Of a stretch of 64,000 nt of DNA, positions 478-41,692 are shown piece after piece. Origin of the DNA: a virus. The stretch spans positions 32,001 through 96,000 of the IMG/VR virus record IMGVR_UViG_3300001472_000003, one strand, 5' to 3'. The translations under genes and the position numbers were made by a program. Every line of letters starts with the position of its first letter. Positions within the stretch are counted from its first letter, which is position 1. A model generated the notes under the pieces. It did no database searches and was not told the origin of the DNA. It was given only the letters and a program-made list of their open reading frames with translations.

Positions 478-2559
478 TTATGCTTTAAATACTTGAACCT
501 GACCATGGCCTGCACTAATCTTATTTGAAGCTGGAGCACCGTAAGCTAAAAATCCATTATTAGATATTGTTATTCTTCTGGCATCTGAACTATTAGCTCC
601 ACCACCATGAGCAGTGTTACCTGTATCTGCTTGAAGTTGATCAAACAAGCTATATGTATTGGAGCCATTTTTTTTGTATACATGTACAACACTTTCAATA
701 GAATTGTCAAATGTAGTATCCATTACTGCAATGTAGCTAGCATCTCCACTTATAGCAATTGCTGCACCAAATCGTCTATATTTGCTAAGACTGTCTGTAC
801 CAATATTTGAACCCAACCCAGTTGTTGGAGCTTCTAATATTTGAATTTGACCCCAATTATTTCCACTTAACTTATATACATATACTTGACCTACACCAGG
901 TACTCCACTACTATGATCACCCCTAATTTGAGTAATAACACATGTATCTGTATCACTCATGCGTACAGCATCTCCAAATCTACCTTCACCATTCGTAGTA
1001 AGTGAACCTATGATGTATTGTTGTTGAGTAAAATCTTTTCTATTTATATTTGAAGATTTATAAAAATACACAGCACCTCGATGAATTTGATCAGATCCAT
1101 ATTGAACACCATTATACGTAGTTGTTGTAAAAGATGTAGCCATTCCTATAGCTAACCATTCTGAATTAGCAGTCATTGCGCATCTTGCAATATTTGACCT
1201 TGTTGATTTAAGAAGCCAACCATTATTTGGTTCAGTTGCAAAATCGATAACCTGAAAATTAGATGCTCTATTTTCAATTCTGCCTTGAGAATCATCTATC
1301 TTCATAATTTGAAATACCGGACCTCTTAGCGATGTTCCTTTATCATAACCAAATACAACACACTGGCCATTATTTGTTCCAGTACCAAGACCCATACATA
1401 CTGATTCTCCAGCATACATATATGCTCGAGGATTTAGATTTGGCTCAATGAAATTATTTGTATTCTGTATTCCTTTACAAAATGTCCATGTACTACCTGA
1501 TCTCTGTAGTATTGTCATTGTTCCTCTGCTTGCTTGGCCTCCAATATCGGCATATGGATCTGATATTAGCAATCTTGTACCATCAGCATTCATTTGCATT
1601 CCAAATCTACCAAATGTGTTGTTAGGACGAGCACTTGTTTGGCTAGGATGTGCATTGTCAAAGTCTATATGATCAACTGTTGTTTGATGTGTCCATGAAT
1701 TTGTTGTACCATCACTAGTCCATATATCAATATGTCCACCACTACTGTTAGGAGTATTATAATACTCCTGAGATGAAATTGCTAAATATTTTCCATCCAT
1801 AGAAAGGACAGCATTCATACCATATCTAGCTTTATCCCCAGCTGCAGTACTGGTCCACTGATTTTGAAGAAATACACCATTATCAAAACCTACATTAACA
1901 TCTAAAGTTATCGCGGCTGTTCCTATATTAGTTCCATCAGTTACAGATATTGATAAAATACCACCTGACAATCCACTTTGACCAGCTGTTACTGTGACTG
2001 TATTATTACCAGTATGATGAGATATTGAAACTTGATCAGTATTAGATATACCTGAGTTTGATGTTGTAACAGTTACTGGTGTGCCTTCTGGCTCACTTGT
2101 TGTATATGTTATATCTATTGTTTCAGCTGGTGTAAACGATTTTGAACTTATACTTGCTGTTATTGTAGGACTGAGATTGATGCTGTCAATAACTCTCCAA
2201 GCACCAGATGATCTTATATATAAATTATCTGTCCCTGTAACAAATCCATGATCTCCATCTTGAATACCAGATGAAGGTAAATCTGATTCATTAGCATATA
2301 CTGTAACAGCTCCTCCCGCTATTGCATTGAGACTAACATTTGATGTAGAACCATCGGCTGATGTAAATACAAGATTACTTCCGGATATTGTTGTAGATGT
2401 TAGAGATGTATCAGTGGTTGGTATTAAATCATCTTCTACTTTAGATTGGAGTATTTCTCTTGTCCAAACATCTTTTAAAGACACATAAGTAAATGTAGTA
2501 CCTTCATGTGTTACTTGATCTCCATTATTAGGATTTGCTGGTAATGCTAAATTTGCCAT
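478..2559 (-). CDS. Tail/receptor-binding structural protein: shared N-terminal module plus FG-GAP-like beta-propeller C-terminus
   Basis: Repeated blades (RYGMNAVLSMDG, RFGDAVRMS, RFGAAIAISGDA, GAVYFY, GQVYVY); S/T/G/N-rich. Confidence 0.65.
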   Translation of the reverse strand: MANLALPANPNNGDQVTHEGTTFTYVSLKDVWTREILQSKVEDDLIPTTDTSLTSTTISGSNLVFTSADGSTSNVSLNAIAGGAVTVYANESDLPSSGIQDGDHGFVTGTDNLYIRSSGAWRVIDSINLSPTITASISSKSFTPAETIDITYTTSEPEGTPVTVTTSNSGISNTDQVSISHHTGNNTVTVTAGQSGLSGGILSISVTDGTNIGTAAITLDVNVGFDNGVFLQNQWTSTAAGDKARYGMNAVLSMDGKYLAISSQEYYNTPNSSGGHIDIWTSDGTTNSWTHQTTVDHIDFDNAHPSQTSARPNNTFGRFGMQMNADGTRLLISDPYADIGGQASRGTMTILQRSGSTWTFCKGIQNTNNFIEPNLNPRAYMYAGESVCMGLGTGTNNGQCVVFGYDKGTSLRGPVFQIMKIDDSQGRIENRASNFQVIDFATEPNNGWLLKSTRSNIARCAMTANSEWLAIGMATSFTTTTYNGVQYGSDQIHRGAVYFYKSSNINRKDFTQQQYIIGSLTTNGEGRFGDAVRMSDTDTCVITQIRGDHSSGVPGVGQVYVYKLSGNNWGQIQILEAPTTGLGSNIGTDSLSKYRRFGAAIAISGDASYIAVMDTTFDNSIESVVHVYKKNGSNTYSLFDQLQADTGNTAHGGGANSSDARRITISNNGFLAYGAPASNKISAGHGQVQVFKA
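2186..2346. repeat. Near-identical DNA block, copy 1 (copy 2 at 5534-5691)
   Basis: 59-bp exact match 2186-2244 = 5534-5592, plus a 34-bp exact match starting at 2284. Confidence 0.9.
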
Positions 2560-2577
2560 CTTAATTATATTCCTTTA

Positions 2578-5500
2578 TTATTTTGTTGTAAAGTCGATTG
2601 GTGTAAAATTATTATCCCAATATTTATTTCCATGTTCAACTCTAAGATTTCTCATAATACCATGAAAATTATGACGTGTTGCACCATTATTAGTAGGACT
2701 GTCCCAAGGAGCAGAACCACTTCTAGTCCAAGGACCTCCTAAAACAAAATTACCACTAGATCTTAATACTACATATTCATTATCAGGAATATATATAGAC
2801 CTTGTTAAATCTCTTTGGCCATTAATGAATAATCTATATTCACCTGCTCTACCATTACTGGTATTGAGTCCAGGTGCTAAAAAGACCAATGCATAATGAT
2901 ACCATTGATTGAATTGATTGCCAGTTGCCATAGTTTTAGATTGTTGACTTTTTCTATCAACAATCCATTGAAATCTATCTCCATTAGAGTCTGCTGTTCC
3001 GGGAGCAGAAGAATGTTGTTGCTCTAGCTTGAGACTTATAGCACCATTATTCTCATTTACTAATCCATATGACCACACATATGAATTTGTGTGTCCATTT
3101 GTTAATTGCATAGGATAAATCCATCCCTCTACACAGAAACCATAACCATCATTTCTGCTGGCGCTTGCACCATTGCCAAATGCATCTAAAACAGCGGATT
3201 CTTTAGGGTTTTCTCCATAAGTATCAAAACTATAAGGATATATTAATTTTGATCCAAAATTTGCATTACTGGAACCAGGATTAAAATATAGATAACTCTT
3301 ACCTGTAGTAGAACCCCCACCCAATTCTGATGGTTCATTGCTCGGCCAGTTAGCTATATTATCAGAATCTGATTTAATTATATCTACAGGACCAAACGAT
3401 GTATCTTTTGCATAATCAGGACTATAAGGTGTTTCAACTCCTGCTGTATCCATTAAAACATGATTCTTAAAATTTAATAATTGTTTAACATGTCCGGATG
3501 GTATTGCAGTATTTATATTAGTTGCAACTGGATATTCGCCACCTGTCAATGTTAGTGGGCCTGTTGGTGGTGTAAAATCTCCGGTATACACACATGTGCC
3601 TACTACAATTCTCATATCTGTCATATGCCCATTAAATGTTTCTCGTGTACCACTACCACCTTGAAAGTCTTTAGCAAAGGTACCCCAAAATGGTCTTCCA
3701 TTTGATGCATTATAATTACGTGTCGCACTGCCCATATAAGTTGTACCTGAGGCACGACGACCATTTAAATAGACTTGGGAATTATCACCATCTCTTGTTA
3801 TAGCCATATGATACCACACTCCTGCGGCGATCTTATGATTATAAGTAGAAAAATTGGGGTTGTCTCCTTTTAATTGATTTCCATCTAATGGTTTATCAAT
3901 ATAAAAATATGGTCCTGCATAATTGCCATTATTTGATCCGTTATTTCTAAAATCAACTAATGTCATTCTGGCTTGATTTGAGGTTCCTCCAGTATGATGC
4001 CTTGCCTTGAACCAAAATTCTATTGTCCATGGGCCTGTACCAAGTGCTATTCCAGATTCACTTCCATTGTTATTTGTGTCGACAGGTCCTGTAGTTATAC
4101 CACCTCTTCCTGCTGTTACAAAGGGATGCATTGATACTGAACCTAAATTCTTGACTGCTTCTACGTTATAGTCATATGGGCTCCTTCTAACTATTTCAAA
4201 TTTTGAAGCACCTGCCATATTATTTTGAATATTACCATTATACTCTACTTTAGTAGAGTTTGAAAAGTCGCCAGTTCCTATATACGAAGTTGGTTGTCCT
4301 GTTGATATAATATTCATAGGTCCTGATGGCCATTGTGATTGAATATCACTATCCATAGTAGAAGTAGGATTTGATGTCCCTATAGAAAAATCATAGAAAA
4401 ATGGTGCTTGTGGTGGAGTAAAATTATTACTAGTGTATACTGCTCTATGTGTTAATCTATAATCATTTATCATCCCTTTAAAAGGAGCACCGTAGGATTT
4501 TAATCCATTCTCGCCCTGATATCCACCGAACCAAGCATATTTAGCACCTGAACCAGTATAATTCATATCATCAGGAAATATGTCGTGGTCATTTTGATCT
4601 AATTCAACACCATTTAGATAGCATTTATAATTGCCAACACTATCAGTTGATGATGCTCTTACTATAGCTAGATGATGCCATTGTCCTCTTGGTATTGGAG
4701 TAGTACTATCTTCACCCACTTGATGCCATATTTTTTTATATCTTTGGTTGTTTTGGCGATAAAATAGATATACACCAGTTGCTGTTACTGATGTTCCTCC
4801 ATGGAGACCCATAGCCCATGAGCCATTTTGTTCAGCGCCTGCACTTTGATTGGTATCTCTGCCTGTTAGAGCAACAGATCTTCTAGAACCATTGTTTTGA
4901 TTCCTTGGAGCTTCTTTAGAAGTGACAAATATATTCATTTCCCAAGTACATGCTCCAGTTCCTGGCATGTTAGCATATCCATCATTGTTTATAACACTAT
5001 AAGAGCCATTAAATTGAGCAGAATATCCAGCAGGATGATACGGTGAGACATTTGAATGAAATACATTTCTTTCAGTTGCGTCTGCATTGTGTTTAGGTTG
5101 TGGATTTGTTAATCCGGTCTCATCTTTAAAAGTTGCAAATCTATTATTATTTACGAATTCACTATTATTATGAGTATTATCATAATTTGGATTAACTGAA
5201 AGATTTAATACAGCTGCTTTAGAGTTAGCAACCTGAAGACTAAAATCTAATGTAACACTATCAGACTGTATATTTGTTCCATCAGTGGCTCTAATAAGTA
5301 ATGTTCCTCCAAATAATTCACTTGTTCCAGAGACAACAGTAATAGTATTATTTCCTGAATGATGTGTAATATTTACTTGTGATGTGTTAGCAATACCTGT
5401 GTTAGAAGTTGTAACTGTTACTGGTGTTCCTTCAGGTTCTGTAACTGTGTATGTTATATCTATTGATTCTGCTGAATCTGCAAATGTATGAGATGATATA

Positions 5501-5901
5501 CTTGCTGTTACTGTGGGTGCGAGATTGACAGCATCAATAACTCTCCAAGCACCAGATGATCTTATATATAAATTATCTGTCCCTGTAACAAACCCATGAG
5601 ATCCATCTTGTGCACTGGCCGGTAAATTTGATTCATTAGCATATACTGTAACAGCTCCTCCCTCTATTGCATTGAGACTAACATTTGATGTTGTTCCGTC
5701 TGCTGCTGTAAATACTAGATTGCTACCAGTAATGGATGTTGATGATATAGATGTATCAGTGGCTGGTATTACATTTTCAAATCGGCCTACTAGTGATTCC
5801 CTATACCAAACATTTTTTGCTTGATTGTATATAAATTTAGTATTCTCATGAGTAACTACCTGTCCATCAGATGGACTAGTTGGAAGATTTAGATTCGCCA
5901 T
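2578..5901 (-). CDS. Tail/receptor-binding structural protein with three LamG/ConA-like domains
   Basis: Three WT(I/W/V)E...W(H/Y)H(L/M/Y)A...YLNG/FING...F.G.(I/M).D.R units; N-terminus shared with neighbours. Confidence 0.75.
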   Translation of the reverse strand: MANLNLPTSPSDGQVVTHENTKFIYNQAKNVWYRESLVGRFENVIPATDTSISSTSITGSNLVFTAADGTTSNVSLNAIEGGAVTVYANESNLPASAQDGSHGFVTGTDNLYIRSSGAWRVIDAVNLAPTVTASISSHTFADSAESIDITYTVTEPEGTPVTVTTSNTGIANTSQVNITHHSGNNTITVVSGTSELFGGTLLIRATDGTNIQSDSVTLDFSLQVANSKAAVLNLSVNPNYDNTHNNSEFVNNNRFATFKDETGLTNPQPKHNADATERNVFHSNVSPYHPAGYSAQFNGSYSVINNDGYANMPGTGACTWEMNIFVTSKEAPRNQNNGSRRSVALTGRDTNQSAGAEQNGSWAMGLHGGTSVTATGVYLFYRQNNQRYKKIWHQVGEDSTTPIPRGQWHHLAIVRASSTDSVGNYKCYLNGVELDQNDHDIFPDDMNYTGSGAKYAWFGGYQGENGLKSYGAPFKGMINDYRLTHRAVYTSNNFTPPQAPFFYDFSIGTSNPTSTMDSDIQSQWPSGPMNIISTGQPTSYIGTGDFSNSTKVEYNGNIQNNMAGASKFEIVRRSPYDYNVEAVKNLGSVSMHPFVTAGRGGITTGPVDTNNNGSESGIALGTGPWTIEFWFKARHHTGGTSNQARMTLVDFRNNGSNNGNYAGPYFYIDKPLDGNQLKGDNPNFSTYNHKIAAGVWYHMAITRDGDNSQVYLNGRRASGTTYMGSATRNYNASNGRPFWGTFAKDFQGGSGTRETFNGHMTDMRIVVGTCVYTGDFTPPTGPLTLTGGEYPVATNINTAIPSGHVKQLLNFKNHVLMDTAGVETPYSPDYAKDTSFGPVDIIKSDSDNIANWPSNEPSELGGGSTTGKSYLYFNPGSSNANFGSKLIYPYSFDTYGENPKESAVLDAFGNGASASRNDGYGFCVEGWIYPMQLTNGHTNSYVWSYGLVNENNGAISLKLEQQHSSAPGTADSNGDRFQWIVDRKSQQSKTMATGNQFNQWYHYALVFLAPGLNTSNGRAGEYRLFINGQRDLTRSIYIPDNEYVVLRSSGNFVLGGPWTRSGSAPWDSPTNNGATRHNFHGIMRNLRVEHGNKYWDNNFTPIDFTTK
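5534..5691. repeat. Near-identical DNA block, copy 2
   Basis: See 2186-2346. Confidence 0.9.
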
Positions 5902-5915
5902 TTTTGAATTCCTTA

Positions 5916-6047
5916 TTATTTTGTGGTTATATTTTTAATTTTGGATATGACCCAATTTTGTATTGATTTAGCATACCATGGTTGTGGCATATTCCATCCT
6001 ATAAAAGCACCAATTATTAACCAAAAGACGATATCCGTCATAAGCAT
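5916..6047 (-). CDS. Small membrane protein, 43 aa (not in ORF track)
   Basis: MLMTDIVFWLIIGAFIGWNMPQPWYAKSIQNWVISKIKNITTK; AAGGGAG SD; late promoter upstream. Confidence 0.75.
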   Translation of the reverse strand: MLMTDIVFWLIIGAFIGWNMPQPWYAKSIQNWVISKIKNITTK

Positions 6048-6086
6048 GATCTCCCTTTTAAAATTTGCATAGATAAATTATACGAG

Positions 6087-6094
6087 TATTTATA
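6087..6094 (-). promoter_or_regulatory. T4-type late promoter TATAAATA
   Basis: Exact gp55 consensus, intergenic, upstream of the tail genes. Confidence 0.8.
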
Positions 6095-6105
6095 ATAATT
6101 AAAGA

Positions 6106-6729
6106 CTATATCTGACCAATAATTGTAAATCTTTTATCTGTTTCTATATTATTATTTTTATGATTAATATCATTTACTGAAGCGCTAATTATTTCTAAAT
6201 TAGAAGGCATTTGATCTCTAAATTCTGTTAGGGATTTAACACAATTTACATGATCACTTACCCCAATCATATCATTTGATTGAAATGCTATAAATGTTCC
6301 TGGCATAATTTGGTTCCATTTATTCCAATATTTCATTGGTGGCATATGTTCACACGACGTATTTATTATAAGATCTGCGTCCTTTAATTTAGGTAGATTA
6401 TCAATCCATATATTTGCTGTTTTTATAATAGCATTACTAATTGGTCTAGCCCTACTAACACTAGCACAATTATTATCCATATCATAGCCTGTTATTGAAT
6501 TACAATGCTTAGACAATAATGGAAATAAAACCGTACCATACCAGCAGGCAAGTACTGTAATATTATCTATCTCGTCAAATATACCCAAAGATTCAATAGT
6601 AGACACTAGATGCATCTTAGAATTATATTGGTTTCTTCTATAACTATTCATTAGATTATTAATTATATGAGGTTTATTATTTACAACAAACGTTATTCTA
6701 TCTAATATATCATGTATTTCTTCAGTCAT
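6106..6729 (-). CDS. Class I SAM-dependent methyltransferase-like protein
   Basis: VLACWYG, ITGYDMD, DLIINTSCEHM, FQSND motifs; start moved to MTEEIH (6729). Confidence 0.6.
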   Translation of the reverse strand: MTEEIHDILDRITFVVNNKPHIINNLMNSYRRNQYNSKMHLVSTIESLGIFDEIDNITVLACWYGTVLFPLLSKHCNSITGYDMDNNCASVSRARPISNAIIKTANIWIDNLPKLKDADLIINTSCEHMPPMKYWNKWNQIMPGTFIAFQSNDMIGVSDHVNCVKSLTEFRDQMPSNLEIISASVNDINHKNNNIETDKRFTIIGQI

Positions 6730-27969: not shown

Positions 27970-30222
27970 TTATTTTTTCCTTTTAATAAAATTGATGAAA
28001 TTTGAATTTATTTGTTCTTTAATAGTTTTATTATTAAATGCTAGAAAGGAATTGACATTAGCATAACCTGCTTGTTGCTCTGTCATATCCATTGTATTAT
28101 CCCATTTACTAACACCTTCATTATATAACGATATTATTTTATCAGAGTCAATATATGCCTTACATTTATCATTCAAATTATTTTTTGCTCTTTCATCCAA
28201 TTTATCATAATGTGAATTGGACACACTACCAATCATTCTATCAACTACCATCAATAACTGTTCATCTGTCATTTCTACAGTCGGTCTTTTAAATCCATGT
28301 TTAGCTAAAACATCTTTATGTTTATCATATGATGATTGTGCTTTTTTAATATGTTTTTTTTGTATTGCTCTTTTAGTAATTTTATTAAAACTAGGCTTAG
28401 AGGGTTTAATTGCATCTTCTTGTTTATTTTGTTTTTGAAGGTATGCAGCTATTGCCATATCTTTTTTCTTTTCATCAGATTTACCTTTAAATTGTGGCTT
28501 ATCAGATTTTTTAAAATCATCTATAAAATCCCCTGCTGTAGATTTTTTAGTTAACTTTTCTTTATGTGTTTGTGGCTTAGTTGGTTTAGTTGGTTTACTT
28601 GTACTTGATGCATAAGGACTTTTAGGTGGACCTACTTTCCATTTTTTTGGATTCTTTAATAGTTTTAAATATTTTCTAGAAACATAAATTTCCTTAAAAG
28701 CTTTATTTAATTCTTCTTTTGGTATACAATTAGGAACTGTTTTACCATTTTTCTTTTTTACACCTAATTGTCTATAATCTTTCCAACATGGATCTTTATC
28801 TTCTTTAAGACCCAACATTTTTCTAACTGCTGCATTAACTAAATCTTTAGCATCTGTTCTTGATAATTTCATTTTAGAAGCTATTTTTCTCTCTGCATCT
28901 GCTGGTGTTCTAGCCATTGCAGATATTGCATTTGCTTTTTTAATCTCATCATTAGTAAATTTTCTTTTAGCTTCATCCATATTTTCTGTATCTTCTTTAC
29001 CTTGCATTCTCAATTTAAATGCTTTTCTTAAATCCGATGGTAAAACTCTTTCTATATTCGTAATATTTTCTTCTGGTTTTTTAATTAATTTTCTTAATTC
29101 TGTTTTTACTTTACCAGCTGAATTACTTTGTACATAAATTGATGGTAGACCTTCTATATCTACTTTAAAGTTAGCTTCGTTTAAATAATTTGTAAAATAT
29201 TGATCAATAGATTCATTAGCTTTTCTACTTCTCATTCTAGATAATCTTTCCATTTCACCCTTCCTTACACGAGGCATTAACCTTTTAGATATTTTTTTAA
29301 TCATTGTTTTCTTTGTTGCTACACGCTTATCAATAGCTTGCTTTGCAGCTGGGGATAAATTTCTATAATTAACTCCTCTTTTACCTGCTAATTTTTTTCT
29401 CATAAAACCTATAGCTTTTCTTGCTGCTCTTTTCTTTAATTTAGCAGTACTTGCGGTTTTCTTTGATGCTATTTTACGCCCTCTTTGAAGTTTAGTTCTA
29501 TATCTTCTCATCATAATACCGCGAGCTCTTCTTTGTTGGGTATTTAATACTTCTGTGAGAAGTCCTTCTGATTCTAATTGTTCTGCTAATTCCATACCTG
29601 ATCTTACCATGTTGAATACTTTATCTGATATTGATGATAATTTAGAAGCGATACCTTTCTTAAAGGAAGCTTTATCATCGTCTTTTACTGCTGCTCTTAA
29701 TTTAGATGCGGACATTGATGCAGTTCCTTCTGCATCAGGATCTCGAGTACCAGCACTTACAACTTTATACGATTTAAATTTAAAATCTTTACCGTTATAC
29801 ATTGCTAATCTTTCATATTCTGATACTCGATCAGATCCAGCAACTATTACAACATTATCATATTGCCCTGTTAATTCTTTAAGCAAGCTTATAACGTTGT
29901 TAGCTTTTGATCGGCGCAACAAATCATTACCAAAAGCTTTTGCTGCTAATTTAAATTTATCAGCGTAAGGTAGTGGATTTTTTTGTGCGTCGAATGTTTG
30001 GGAGAGAAATAGAAGAGGTATGCCTTTTTCCTTGCGGGCTATATCGCGTAGTTTGCTAACTAAAACTTCGTGTCCTTTTGTAGGGGGATTATATCTACCA
30101 AAGCTGAATACAGCTGTTGTTTCTTTAGCTTCTTTAATAGCTGGTGATATAATAATTTTATCACTTTGTGATTTTGAATCAGATTTACTGTTCTTAATTT
30201 TTTTAGTTTTGCTTTTATCCAT
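27970..30222 (-). CDS. Cytidyltransferase-like (HIGH-family nucleotidyltransferase) with long basic C-terminal extension
   Basis: FSFGRYNPPTKGH, KNPL, VAGSDR, SAGTRDPD, MSASKLR. Confidence 0.85.
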   Translation of the reverse strand: MDKSKTKKIKNSKSDSKSQSDKIIISPAIKEAKETTAVFSFGRYNPPTKGHEVLVSKLRDIARKEKGIPLLFLSQTFDAQKNPLPYADKFKLAAKAFGNDLLRRSKANNVISLLKELTGQYDNVVIVAGSDRVSEYERLAMYNGKDFKFKSYKVVSAGTRDPDAEGTASMSASKLRAAVKDDDKASFKKGIASKLSSISDKVFNMVRSGMELAEQLESEGLLTEVLNTQQRRARGIMMRRYRTKLQRGRKIASKKTASTAKLKKRAARKAIGFMRKKLAGKRGVNYRNLSPAAKQAIDKRVATKKTMIKKISKRLMPRVRKGEMERLSRMRSRKANESIDQYFTNYLNEANFKVDIEGLPSIYVQSNSAGKVKTELRKLIKKPEENITNIERVLPSDLRKAFKLRMQGKEDTENMDEAKRKFTNDEIKKANAISAMARTPADAERKIASKMKLSRTDAKDLVNAAVRKMLGLKEDKDPCWKDYRQLGVKKKNGKTVPNCIPKEELNKAFKEIYVSRKYLKLLKNPKKWKVGPPKSPYASSTSKPTKPTKPQTHKEKLTKKSTAGDFIDDFKKSDKPQFKGKSDEKKKDMAIAAYLQKQNKQEDAIKPSKPSFNKITKRAIQKKHIKKAQSSYDKHKDVLAKHGFKRPTVEMTDEQLLMVVDRMIGSVSNSHYDKLDERAKNNLNDKCKAYIDSDKIISLYNEGVSKWDNTMDMTEQQAGYANVNSFLAFNNKTIKEQINSNFINFIKRKK

Positions 30223-30235
30223 TTTATTATCCTCG

Positions 30236-30295
30236 CCAGGTTTTCCTGAGACTTACTGGTTCTTCATGTGTAGGTTTTCCTAAGACTAACTACAC
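30236..30295 (-). promoter_or_regulatory. Tandem hairpin element in late 5' UTR (candidate cis-regulatory RNA)
   Basis: GUGUAG[UUAGUCUUAGGAAAAC]CUACAC and CCAG[UAAGUCUCAGGAAAAC]CUGG; loops 14/16 identical, stems differ; second hairpin abuts SD GAGG. Confidence 0.65.
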
Positions 30296-30298
30296 TCT

Positions 30299-30306
30299 TA
30301 TTTATA
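30299..30306 (-). promoter_or_regulatory. Late promoter TATAAATA
   Basis: Exact consensus overlapping the FkbM stop codon. Confidence 0.75.
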
Positions 30307-31036
30307 CATTATCGTTATGCAAGAATAAGTAATCAGCATTAGAACTTAATATAAATGAATATCCAAGATTTTTTAATAATTCATGACCTCTTCCGAGTTC
30401 TGTGATGATAGCTGGTTTTAATAATCTTATAGTTGCTTGGGCACCCATAATTACAGCTTCTTCATGTCCTTCGACATCAAGATGTATTAAATCTATATCT
30501 GGTAATTGTAATGAATCTATAGTTGTTTGCATAACCTCAATATCATGATTTAAATCAATATCTCTAGGATTAATAGAAAATGTGCCTCTATTGGCATAAT
30601 TTCTTCTTTTTAAATTTACTAATTTTTGAGTATCACCTAAAGCCATTTGTAGTTTGGTGCATCTATCACTTTGTGTGTTATTTACAAGATAATAAAAATT
30701 AACTGGATCTGGTTCTATTGATACTACCTTATCAAAATGATTCAAGTAAAATCTTGCATACATGCCAAGATTACCACCAGCTTGTAATACTTTATGGAAT
30801 CCCCAACCTCTTTTAATTAATTCATTTTTAAATTTAGGCCAGTTTACAATCCAATCTCTAAGTGGACCATCATCTAATGATCCAAATGATCCTGTATCAT
30901 CTTTATGCCAGAATAAACAAGCTGTTTGTTCTATATTGCCATTTGGTAGATCTTTTAAAATTAAATTTTTATAAAAATTAAATTCTTCATCTTTAATATA
31001 TTCTGGTCTCTTTATAGGGACCATTATCTTTGCCAT
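30302..31036 (-). CDS. FkbM-family methyltransferase
   Basis: VLQAGGNLG, SIEPDP.NF, MALGD, LIHLDVEGHE. Confidence 0.85.
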   Translation of the reverse strand: MAKIMVPIKRPEYIKDEEFNFYKNLILKDLPNGNIEQTACLFWHKDDTGSFGSLDDGPLRDWIVNWPKFKNELIKRGWGFHKVLQAGGNLGMYARFYLNHFDKVVSIEPDPVNFYYLVNNTQSDRCTKLQMALGDTQKLVNLKRRNYANRGTFSINPRDIDLNHDIEVMQTTIDSLQLPDIDLIHLDVEGHEEAVIMGAQATIRLLKPAIITELGRGHELLKNLGYSFILSSNADYLFLHNDNV

Positions 31037-32250
31037 CCTTTAAGTATATCAGGTGAAAAGTTTGCATAACTAAATTCAAGCCTATCTACTAACTTGACTG
31101 CATTATTTCCTATACGATCAATTGCAACAAATCCTTCTTGTCCTGTAACTTTATAACCATTTTTTGTTTTAAGAAATGTTCTTAAAGAACCTGCTTCATT
31201 CATTTTTCCAATAATATAATGTTTACAAACAACTATTTTTTGCATTAAATTAAATACATTAGCAAGAGAAATAGGATCAGCTAATACCTTCATAAATTCT
31301 TTCTTTTTTTCTTCGACACCTGCTTTGCCTTTAGGTGTTTTTCTTTTAGCAATTTCTTTATTATAATATTCAGTAATATAATTAAGAAATGCTTGCGATA
31401 GAGCCATTCCTGTTGGCCAGCTTTGGCCTTCACGTATATAAGAATTTAAAAAGGTTTTAATTTTTTTCTTTACTTCTTCACTATCTTTAATATTATTTAA
31501 ATATTTTGCTTTAATTTTTCTAAATATTTGCCCAGCTATTCTTAACTCAGCAGTTATTTGACTGGTCTCTTCAAATGTCATAGTAGCTCTACCAGACACA
31601 TCTTGATACACTGCATCTACAGACCAGACACTTGGTGATTTTTTTAATCTCGAGGCTATAGTTTTACCGAATGATGCCTTCATTGTTTGAAAAGAATCCC
31701 CAGTATATGTTGTATGCCATACAATACCTATTTCACTCTTTTTAATAGTTTTACCGAGAGGAGTATTTGCGGGTACTGCATATAAAATGGTATTAGGATG
31801 AAATGTAATAAATTTATTTTTTTCTATATCTTGATACTCGAGATCCGATTTATCATACAAAAAGTCACCTTGAACACATATATCTGTTATACCCAATTTA
31901 GGTAATTGTTGTAAAGCTTTAAGCATTTTTTTTTGTAAATCACCTGTTGTATCTTTTTTCACATCTTTAGGTGTTTTATATACTTTAGGAGTTGTGTTGA
32001 AAATAGATTTCTTTGCTACATAAAATTTACCATCTGATGGATCTACGCCCGCAAATACTGCAGGTGATCCATCCCATTTTACAGATACATTTACTCTATT
32101 ATCACTTTTGCCCGCCAGCATATCTCTTAATGATTGGATAAAATTAATCGCTTCTCTGGCGCCATCAACACCTCTATTTAGAACATTATCTTCCAAATGT
32201 TCCATATGAGAATTGTTTGACTCTATAATAAAATTATTAAATTTTTTCAT
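31024..32250 (-). CDS. Conserved T4-like late protein (DUF6267-like)
   Basis: HMEHLED, VKWDGSPA, QGDFLY, F.PNTI.YAV, EGFVA, KLVDRLEFS.ANF; N-terminus MKKFNNFIIE. Confidence 0.7.
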   Translation of the reverse strand: MKKFNNFIIESNNSHMEHLEDNVLNRGVDGAREAINFIQSLRDMLAGKSDNRVNVSVKWDGSPAVFAGVDPSDGKFYVAKKSIFNTTPKVYKTPKDVKKDTTGDLQKKMLKALQQLPKLGITDICVQGDFLYDKSDLEYQDIEKNKFITFHPNTILYAVPANTPLGKTIKKSEIGIVWHTTYTGDSFQTMKASFGKTIASRLKKSPSVWSVDAVYQDVSGRATMTFEETSQITAELRIAGQIFRKIKAKYLNNIKDSEEVKKKIKTFLNSYIREGQSWPTGMALSQAFLNYITEYYNKEIAKRKTPKGKAGVEEKKKEFMKVLADPISLANVFNLMQKIVVCKHYIIGKMNEAGSLRTFLKTKNGYKVTGQEGFVAIDRIGNNAVKLVDRLEFSYANFSPDILKGWQR

Positions 32251-32272: not shown

Positions 32273-32280
32273 TATTTATA
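32273..32280 (-). promoter_or_regulatory. Late promoter TATAAATA
   Basis: Exact consensus, intergenic. Confidence 0.8.
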
Positions 32281-41290: not shown

Positions 41291-41692
41291 TTACACTTTC
41301 TTTTTTCCAATATTATATTTTGGAATTAGTTCCCATTGATCTTTAAATTTGTGAGGTATTATTTTTATTTTACTTATTGGCAATTTAATTGCAAAATTAT
41401 CACTATCTTTTTTTAATATTTTAACTAGGTCCCATTCTGCAAGTAATTGTATAATAGAATTTCTTCTGCCAATATCCTCATCAGTTATTGTAGATTCTTT
41501 TCCATCTAGTGCGAAGAGCTCCTTAAAGTGCACAATATAATATTTACCTTGTTTATGTAATATATGGCAACTTTGAAATAAAGTATTAGTTCGTCTGGAA
41601 GCAACGCCTATTCTTGTAAGAGTCTCTCTTACTTTTAGAAAATCATCTTGTTTTTCTAAAGATATTTCTATCATGTTTTCGATTAAATGCAT
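41291..41692 (-). CDS. regA: Translational repressor RegA
   Basis: DDFLKVRETLTRIG, QSCHILHKQG, YIVHFKELF. Confidence 0.96.
   Translation of the reverse strand: MHLIENMIEISLEKQDDFLKVRETLTRIGVASRRTNTLFQSCHILHKQGKYYIVHFKELFALDGKESTITDEDIGRRNSIIQLLAEWDLVKILKKDSDNFAIKLPISKIKIIPHKFKDQWELIPKYNIGKKKV

Follow-up and report, generated by a model that had tools for sequence, protein, structure and literature searches.

The replicase operators of the RNA coliphages MS2, Qbeta and PP7 are small, weak hairpins that carry a ribosome-binding site or start codon and are bound by a coat-protein dimer. Here, we describe an uncatalogued RNA hairpin family of a familiar kind. It was found in the leader of a 'cytidyltransferase-like' gene on a virus DNA stretch of 64,000 nucleotides (nt), positions 32,001 to 96,000 of the IMG/VR record IMGVR_UViG_3300001472_000003. 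This stretch is referred to as the window, and its source is a complete virus record of 149.5 kilobases (kb) with terminal repeats. In the window, two hairpins stand in tandem ahead of the gene. As in the coliphage operators, the stems covary and enclose a few unpaired nucleotides that are fixed, and the proposed logic is shared, namely that a late structural protein shuts off one gene. However, there is no sequence or architectural homology. The coliphage operators have a bulged A and a 4-nt loop, whereas the present hairpin has a 4x4 internal loop and a helix of two base pairs (bp) capped by a YNMG tetraloop. Moreover, the virus described here is a DNA phage, the binder is only a candidate and the copies may be tandem.

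Other described systems share single properties with this locus. The autogenous operators of T4 (the hairpin of gene 43 plus its Shine-Dalgarno (SD) sequence, and the gene 32 leader) are also gene-specific operators of a T4-like phage, located at the SD and present once per genome. They belong to early or middle replication genes and have other structures, whereas the gene studied here is a late virion-associated gene for which autogenous binding is putative. The Escherichia coli thrS operator and the two-site L20 operator place two similar RNA sites by the SD and are tied to a single protein family. The tandem in the window resembles this two-site logic, but those sites mimic transfer RNA or ribosomal RNA and no such mimicry was found here. 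The Guanidine-II (mini-ykkC) riboswitch consists of tandem small hairpins with near-identical conserved nucleotides just upstream of the SD. In that class a conserved ACGR tetraloop kisses its twin, whereas in the present family the internal loop is conserved and the YNMG tetraloops vary. In addition, most of the present leaders (82/114) have one hairpin, there is no Rfam match, and the downstream gene belongs to the DUF5824/cytidyltransferase-like family in nearly all matches, with no gene for guanidine export or degradation. Finally, the split or structured ribosome-binding sites of T4 genes 25 and 38 and the ompA-type 5' stabiliser hairpins are likewise hairpins in the leaders of late or structural genes, where they influence initiation or guard the 5' end. 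Unlike the present motif, they are without a conserved loop signature shared across distant phages.

The preliminary description of the window, which was made without database searches, recognised no named family in the two hairpins, and the searches agreed with it. A scan of window positions 29900-30700 with Rfam 15 (4227 models) at E <= 10 gave two chance-level matches on the opposite strand, rli45 (E 0.49) and ceN106 (E 0.66). The same models gave nothing at E <= 1 in 17 diverse motif-bearing loci. No description of the motif was found in the literature by gene name, topic or motif sequence, including the checked surveys of marine and phage RNA motifs.

Results

Structure and covariation of the hairpin unit

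Orthologous loci were gathered by protein similarity alone from IMG/VR and metagenomes. The family comprises 61 distinct hairpin units and 114 distinct leaders with one or two copies. Each unit has a covarying outer stem of 3-7 bp, followed by a 4x4 internal loop, an inner 2-bp helix and a tetraloop tip. The internal loop reads U-N-A-G on its 5' side, usually as UAAG or UUAG, and A-N-N-C on its 3' side, mostly as AAAC and also as AAUC, AGAC or AACC. The inner helix covaries as well and occurs as UC/GA, GC/GC, CC/GG, AC/GU, UG/CA, CU/GG and others; its 3' strand is GA in 29/61 units and otherwise GC, GG, GU or CA. The tip is a YNMG tetraloop (UAAG, CAAG, UACG, UUAG, CACG and others). Across deep clades, five unpaired positions of the loop are invariant, in contrast to the variable stems and tip.

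Across the 61 distinct units, all six core pairs change on both sides. The proportion of paired cells is 83%, compared with 51% in shuffles. The covariation score of 0.84 (0.22 in shuffles) was reached by none of 500 shuffles and was lost when the partner column was slid. The first collection of units required pairing, and two checks free of that bias were added. With the sequence-only pattern T.AG N8 A..C, all six pairs were found in 49 distinct sense-strand matches, as against 0/363 antisense matches. With a structure-only scan of the leader zone, UNAG/ANNC was the only recurring loop type (49/142 matches) and the rest were singletons. RNAalifold independently predicted the same two helices, and the motif fold was the minimum free energy (MFE) structure in 51/61 units. 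The hairpins are weak, with a mean of -4.8 kcal/mol. A count of G-U against A-C on the unforced outer pairs left the strand undecided; the sense strand was assigned because of the position of the motif and its asymmetric conserved sequence.

Taken by itself, the window leader was of little help. Its MFE z-score was only -0.96 when it was folded alone, which is uninformative, and the repeat alone is weak evidence, as a 14-mer with two mismatches was matched twice in 17% of shuffles. The comparison with relatives settles that the hairpins are more than chance. In close relatives at 98%, 89% and 70% protein identity the leader is nearly unchanged, and it differs solely in the two outermost base pairs of the first hairpin. 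L002 and L128 keep precisely the inner 4 bp of this hairpin, and GU wobbles stand in place of the outer AC in L125, while hairpin 2 is identical across L001, L002, L125 and L128. The leader is better conserved than the flanking coding DNA, with 91% against 78-80% in L002 and 96% against 90% in L125. Relatives at 51-56% identity have a diverged tandem of the same architecture, even with a different upstream gene. One example reads GUGAG-UAAG-GCU-AAU-GGC-AAAC-CUCAU and then CAGG-UAAG-GU-UUA-AC-AAAC-CCUG. A scan of IMG/VR with the 15-mer of the window itself returned mostly single chance matches, and the tandem appeared in two contigs only, both from close relatives. A nucleotide search of cultured phages gave a weak coding match and nothing else. 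Selection on RNA structure had been proposed from the paired outer stems of the window. That proposal is borne out by the covariation over the 61 units, by the motif being kept with covariation in the orthologous leaders, and by the conservation of the leader above that of its coding flanks.

Specificity for one gene family

A covariance model, R1, was built from the units of the relatives. Over the whole 149.5-kb genome at E <= 10, R1 found only the two copies in the leader, and its next best match in the 64-kb window scored 12 bits. A search of both strands of 170 orthologous loci retrieved by protein similarity (about 600 kb) gave 107 matches at E <= 0.1, every one of them on the sense strand and directly ahead of the gene. 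The element is thus specific to the leader of this gene, as had been suggested. The commonest 16-nt core is present in 111 IMG/VR stretches, and details of the match cover 80 listed loci out of these. An outer stem of 3 bp or more can be formed in 75 of the 80, and a pattern test placed the gene family downstream in 53. In most of the other listed loci the downstream gene is a family variant written AWGRMNP or GGGFQPFHxGH; the downstream open reading frames (ORFs) of L315 and L348 matched no family assignment. Besides motif sites, R1 matched nothing in the 738 kb around the core loci.

The link between motif and gene persists across different upstream neighbours, such as an FkbM methyltransferase, a DUF6267 protein and others. 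On a tree of the enzyme domain, the motif is found in many deep clades, and at least five gains or losses are forced by well-supported branches. The leaders of more distant orthologues (about 33% identity, L003-L013) and of L142 are short and lack the motif. R1 scans of the whole records of Syn9, Melnitz, S-PM2 and P-HM1 gave no match. The motif is absent in the examined cultured cyanophages and in the OM43 phage Melnitz, and the gene is there fused or translationally coupled to its upstream neighbour. A variant was found in a cultured soil phage, Stenotrophomonas phage vB_SmaS-DLP_6 (DLP6, KU682439.2; L312:1310-1336, 22 bits). It reads UUCGAG-AAG-GC-UACG-GC-AAAC-CUCGAG, with the first U missing, and lies just ahead of the SD of a gene annotated as 'cytitidyltransferase', 9 nt before the AUG region. 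A scan of species genomes found six contigs only, binned into unrelated metagenome-assembled genomes, and a host assignment was not obtained.

Position relative to promoter and start codon

The last loop nucleotide, C16, lies 2-8 nt from the start codon in 75/114 leaders and 11-19 nt from it in 28/114. The element is therefore at the translation-initiation region, where the preliminary description had placed it. Two copies per leader are present in 32/114. In the compact class, the hairpin tip supplies the SD: the tip is AAGG (UAAGGA, CAAGGG) in 24/33 distinct units, and a further SD stands downstream in 1/33. In the extended class, which includes the window, a separate SD is located downstream in 15/15 cases, often overlapping the 3' strand of the stem, and 4/15 units have an SD-like tip. 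The distal copies of tandems have such a tip in 2/10. Because SD-like tips are common only where no other SD exists, the SD-like AGGA is a secondary adaptation, and the defining features of the motif are its internal loop and its shape.

An NTAAATA box was found within 130 nt upstream in 91/114 motif-bearing leaders, usually 1-17 nt ahead of the first stem. T4 late transcription starts about 6 nt past this box. By the T4 rule, the late mRNA of the window is predicted to start at about G30293. The predicted start falls exactly at the 4-bp core GUAG/CUAC (30293-30290 with 30273-30270), which is the part preserved in L002, and a transcript from this position would retain only GUAG/CUAC of the outer stem of hairpin 1. 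The box of the window, TATAAATA, is a putative promoter by its likeness to the T4 type. It has 17 occurrences in the window, compared with about 27 expected from shuffles, and 14/17 are on the minus strand. This under-representation fits a selective avoidance of a functional late-promoter word. One of the sites lies just upstream of the DUF6267 gene (Table 1). In one clade (L157, L163, L165, L166, L256, L289 and L294), a second conserved leader element was observed about 30-70 nt upstream of the hairpin. It sits between the TATAAATA box and the motif and is made up of a short, hairpin-like GAC(A/C)UCUCUAUUAUA..GUC stretch together with an (A/U)GUCAA box immediately 5' of the motif hairpin.

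Layout of the window locus

On the minus strand of the window, a gap of 84 nt separates an FkbM-type methyltransferase gene from the 'cytidyltransferase-like' gene of 750 amino acids (aa). The upstream neighbours encode a Methyltransf_21 protein and a DUF6267 protein. The gap is composed, in order, of TATAAATA, AGA, hairpin 1 (GUGUAG-UUAGUCUUAGGAAAAC-CUACAC), AUGAAGAA, hairpin 2 (CCAG-UAAGUCUCAGGAAAAC-CUGG), C, GAGG, AUAAUAAA and AUG. The sequence and the hairpin layout are exactly those given in the preliminary description, including the single nucleotide between hairpin 2 and the SD. The two near-identical 16-nt loops reported there are indeed identical at 14/16 positions, with unlike outer stems. 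They are not open loops, however, and each resolves into UNAG, a 2-bp helix, a tetraloop, the return strand of the helix and ANNC. The coordinates of all features are collected in Table 1.

Table 1. Coordinates and properties of the features of the window.
Feature	Position in window	Strand	Remarks
Late-promoter-like box TATAAATA, T4-type	30299..30306	-	overlaps the TAA stop (30304-30302) of the upstream FkbM-type methyltransferase gene
Hairpin 1, GUGUAG-UUAG-UC-UUAG-GA-AAAC-CUACAC	30268..30295	-	core 30289-30274; model R1 31.4 bits, E ~2e-7
Mini-ORF of five codons, AUG AAG AAC CAG UAA	30253..30267	-	read from sequence
Hairpin 2, CCAG-UAAG-UC-UCAG-GA-AAAC-CUGG	30236..30259	-	core 30255-30240; model R1 33.2 bits, E ~5e-8
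Shine-Dalgarno sequence GAGG	30231..30234	-	1 nt past hairpin 2, 8 nt ahead of AUG; read from sequence
Regulated gene, 750 aa	27970..30222	-	ATG 30222-30220; PHROG phrog_3041 'cytidyltransferase', E 1.4e-54
Competing fold of hairpin 2 and SD	30223..30259	-	
Arg/Lys-rich domain, residues ~215-345	29188..29580	-	alignment A6; model pLDDT 83.6
FkbM-type methyltransferase gene	30302..31036	-	
Further TATAAATA site	32273..32280		just upstream of DUF6267 gene
RegA homologue	41306..41674	-	G000:73306-73674; PF01818, 151.7 bits

A mini-ORF lies between the two hairpins. Its AUG is 6 nt past hairpin 1, which is the start-codon spacing of the compact-class relatives, and its stop is the UAA within the conserved UAAG of hairpin 2. 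Comparable mini-ORFs were found in L129/L131/L135 (AUG ACA GGU AAG GUx UAA), and a start-stop AUGUAA stands between the two hairpins of L222. A competing fold can also be drawn, in which UCUC of hairpin 2 pairs with the SD GAGG around a CAGG-AAAA-CCUG hairpin. Its energy is -10.5 kcal/mol, compared with -9.1 kcal/mol for the fold with two motifs, and close relatives carry an identical sequence here.

The gene product and its split forms

The 750-aa product consists of a HIGH-type nucleotidyltransferase-like domain (residues ~35-215), an Arg/Lys-rich helical domain (~215-335) and a variable tail that ends in a DUF5824-like module. The Arg/Lys-rich domain, hereafter the basic domain, is conserved. 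A profile search with it against PDB sequences gave nothing relevant at E <= 10, Pfam gave no match and Foldseek none at E <= 0.001; the best result of VIA-align had a Z of 6.0 and concerned generic helical proteins. The N-terminal 331 residues of the product had no PDB or NCBIfam match. A likeness of the basic domain to ribosomal protein L20 found no support in the PDB profile search, Pfam, Foldseek or VIA-align. A cyanophage homologue of the product was detected in a virion proteome (PMC9146016).

In some relatives, the parts of the protein are encoded separately. In L346 (IMGVR_UViG_3300044627_002086, 1135-6386, minus strand), the motif occurs twice, directly before a 383-aa protein made up of the basic domain and the DUF5824 module. 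The genes before the motifs are, in order, a DUF6267 gene (phrog_455), a 202-aa nucleotidyltransferase-only gene (phrog_3041), a polynucleotide-kinase-like gene (phrog_415) and a gene for a virion structural protein (phrog_1645). In L316 and four near-copies, the motif precedes a 206-aa DUF5824-only protein without an enzyme or basic domain. The basic domain was not found in two contigs of 62-64 kb from the L316 group, which are only 34-38% complete. The RNA motif tracks the non-enzymatic part of the gene family, which argues against a riboswitch that senses the substrate or product of the enzyme. Kinase fusions also occur among the homologues of the product. Together with the gene set of L346, they hint at a nucleic-acid end-processing set packaged in the virion.

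Discussion

Our preferred interpretation, which is tentative, is that the element acts as a translational operator for this one gene and is bound by a protein, possibly the one that the gene encodes. It carries the signature of an operator because a weak hairpin, with fixed unpaired nucleotides inside covarying helices, is located at or beside the SD or AUG of the regulated gene and is faithful to one protein family. The weakness of the hairpins supports this interpretation, since a ribosome could open them unless they are held shut. In the proposed mechanism, the internal loop would be recognised by a protein. The most economical binder would be the encoded protein itself, by way of its Arg/Lys-rich domain, or a partner that is made alongside it. 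Binding would stabilise the otherwise weak hairpin (about -5 kcal/mol), and the bound hairpin would block the 30S subunit from the SD and AUG and thereby cap the synthesis of the protein late in infection. In the phage of the window, the module is duplicated and shifted upstream, and a protein on hairpin 2 would sit 1 nt from GAGG. The product is a plausible binder because it has a conserved Arg/Lys-rich domain and because, in the split L346, the motif precedes the part carrying this domain. The link of the product to the motif through its basic and DUF5824 parts is circumstantial. One or two copies per leader fit a monomer or dimer binder. The two-site translational control element of the preliminary description is still the best reading with regard to translational control, but two sites are not the rule, as the majority of leaders have a single copy.

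Several observations weigh against a protein-bound operator. The motif of the L316 group stands before a protein that lacks the basic domain; thus, if a protein binds, the reader need not be this domain. In the cultured cyanophages and Melnitz, which lack the motif, the gene is expressed in translational coupling with the upstream gene, and the control can therefore be dispensed with. None of the four comparisons listed above revealed a likeness of the basic domain to a known RNA-binding fold. In addition, the tip of the compact class, which doubles as the SD, would equally suit a purely structural ribosome-binding site.

The latter possibility is the strongest competitor, although we consider it rather unlikely. 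Here, the hairpin would be a factor-independent leader module, namely a self-contained structured ribosome-binding site and 5'-end cap. Its stable tetraloop would expose the SD, initiation would proceed at a fixed, moderate rate, and the 5' end of the late mRNA would be shielded. In the window, ribosomes recruited at hairpin 1 would translate the mini-ORF; by terminating within hairpin 2 they would open it and so promote re-initiation at the main AUG. This agrees with the compact class, where the tip is the only SD, and with the location of the first stem just past the NTAAATA box in most leaders, near the predicted 5' end. The AUG at compact-class spacing after hairpin 1 of the window, the end of the mini-ORF in hairpin 2 and the related mini-ORFs of L129/L135 and L222 point in the same direction, as does the dispensability of the motif where the gene is coupled to its upstream neighbour. 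However, such a module leaves unexplained why five unpaired loop positions are fixed while stems and tip vary, and why no other late gene of the phage has the module. Furthermore, the distal and extended-class copies are mostly without an SD-like tip, and a mini-ORF is missing from most tandem leaders.

A small riboswitch, single or tandem, is improbable. A metabolite in the internal loop would alter the access to the SD, in the window by way of the competing UCUC-GAGG fold. The conserved internal loop between covarying helices, the tandem copies in 32/114 leaders, the similar energy of the SD-sequestering fold in the window and the nucleotidyltransferase-like domain that the downstream protein usually has would all suit it. 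On the other hand, a single protein family is controlled and not a pathway, and a cyanophage homologue of the product is associated with the virion (PMC9146016). With about 10 unpaired nucleotides the unit is very small, and no Rfam riboswitch was matched. The competing fold is probably not conserved, and the SD is inside the hairpin in most members. A riboswitch for a ligand of the downstream enzyme had been offered in the preliminary description. This idea is weakened, as the motif precedes the DUF5824/basic part of the split gene and not its nucleotidyltransferase domain, and it also precedes DUF5824-only proteins.

It is equally improbable that the hairpin is another kind of RNA-level target, recognised, for example, by a processing nuclease or by an enzyme of RNA modification or repair whose gene lies nearby (the DUF6267 protein, or the polynucleotide kinase of some relatives). 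The recurrence of DUF6267 in the neighbourhood, the polynucleotide-kinase-like gene in L346 and the conserved loop nucleotides would agree with such a target, but nothing suggests that the RNA is cleaved or modified here, the motif keeps its place relative to the SD/AUG and not to an operon boundary, and it occurs with varied neighbours.

A site for a global regulator, either a CsrA-like protein at the looped AGGA or the phage RegA, both of which had been named as candidate binders, can practically be dismissed: AGGA is present in both apical regions of the window copies and a RegA homologue is encoded (Table 1), but only some half of the units contain GGA, in line with their need for an SD, PF02599 (csrA) had no match in the complete phage genome while control genomes did match, and one motif locus per genome stands against the many mRNA targets of both regulators. 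RegA acts at unstructured, AU-rich sites that span the AUG in many early genes, unlike the single structured site found here on one gene behind a late-type box.

The more far-reaching proposals are long shots. These are that a new riboswitch class, single or tandem, has its smallest aptamer in this unit and gates a virion protein of T4-like phages on a nucleotide-type metabolite, or that the UNAG/ANNC internal loop and the DUF5824 or basic domain form a new RNA-protein recognition pair.

Conclusions

The hairpin described here represents a well-supported uncatalogued RNA family that covaries strongly, has hundreds of instances and is strictly linked to a single gene. Abundant T4-like phages of aquatic habitats carry it, as does at least one phage in culture, Stenotrophomonas phage DLP6. 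The RNA measures only about 25 nt, the nucleotides critical to it have been predicted, and candidate binders are encoded adjacent to it. It is tied to a widespread virion-associated 'cytidyltransferase'/DUF5824 protein family of uncharacterised function, and thus provides an experimental handle on both the RNA and the protein. To our knowledge, few cases of gene-specific post-transcriptional control of late genes are known in T4-like phages beyond T4. The present element would add a case of such control of a late gene in T4-like phages.

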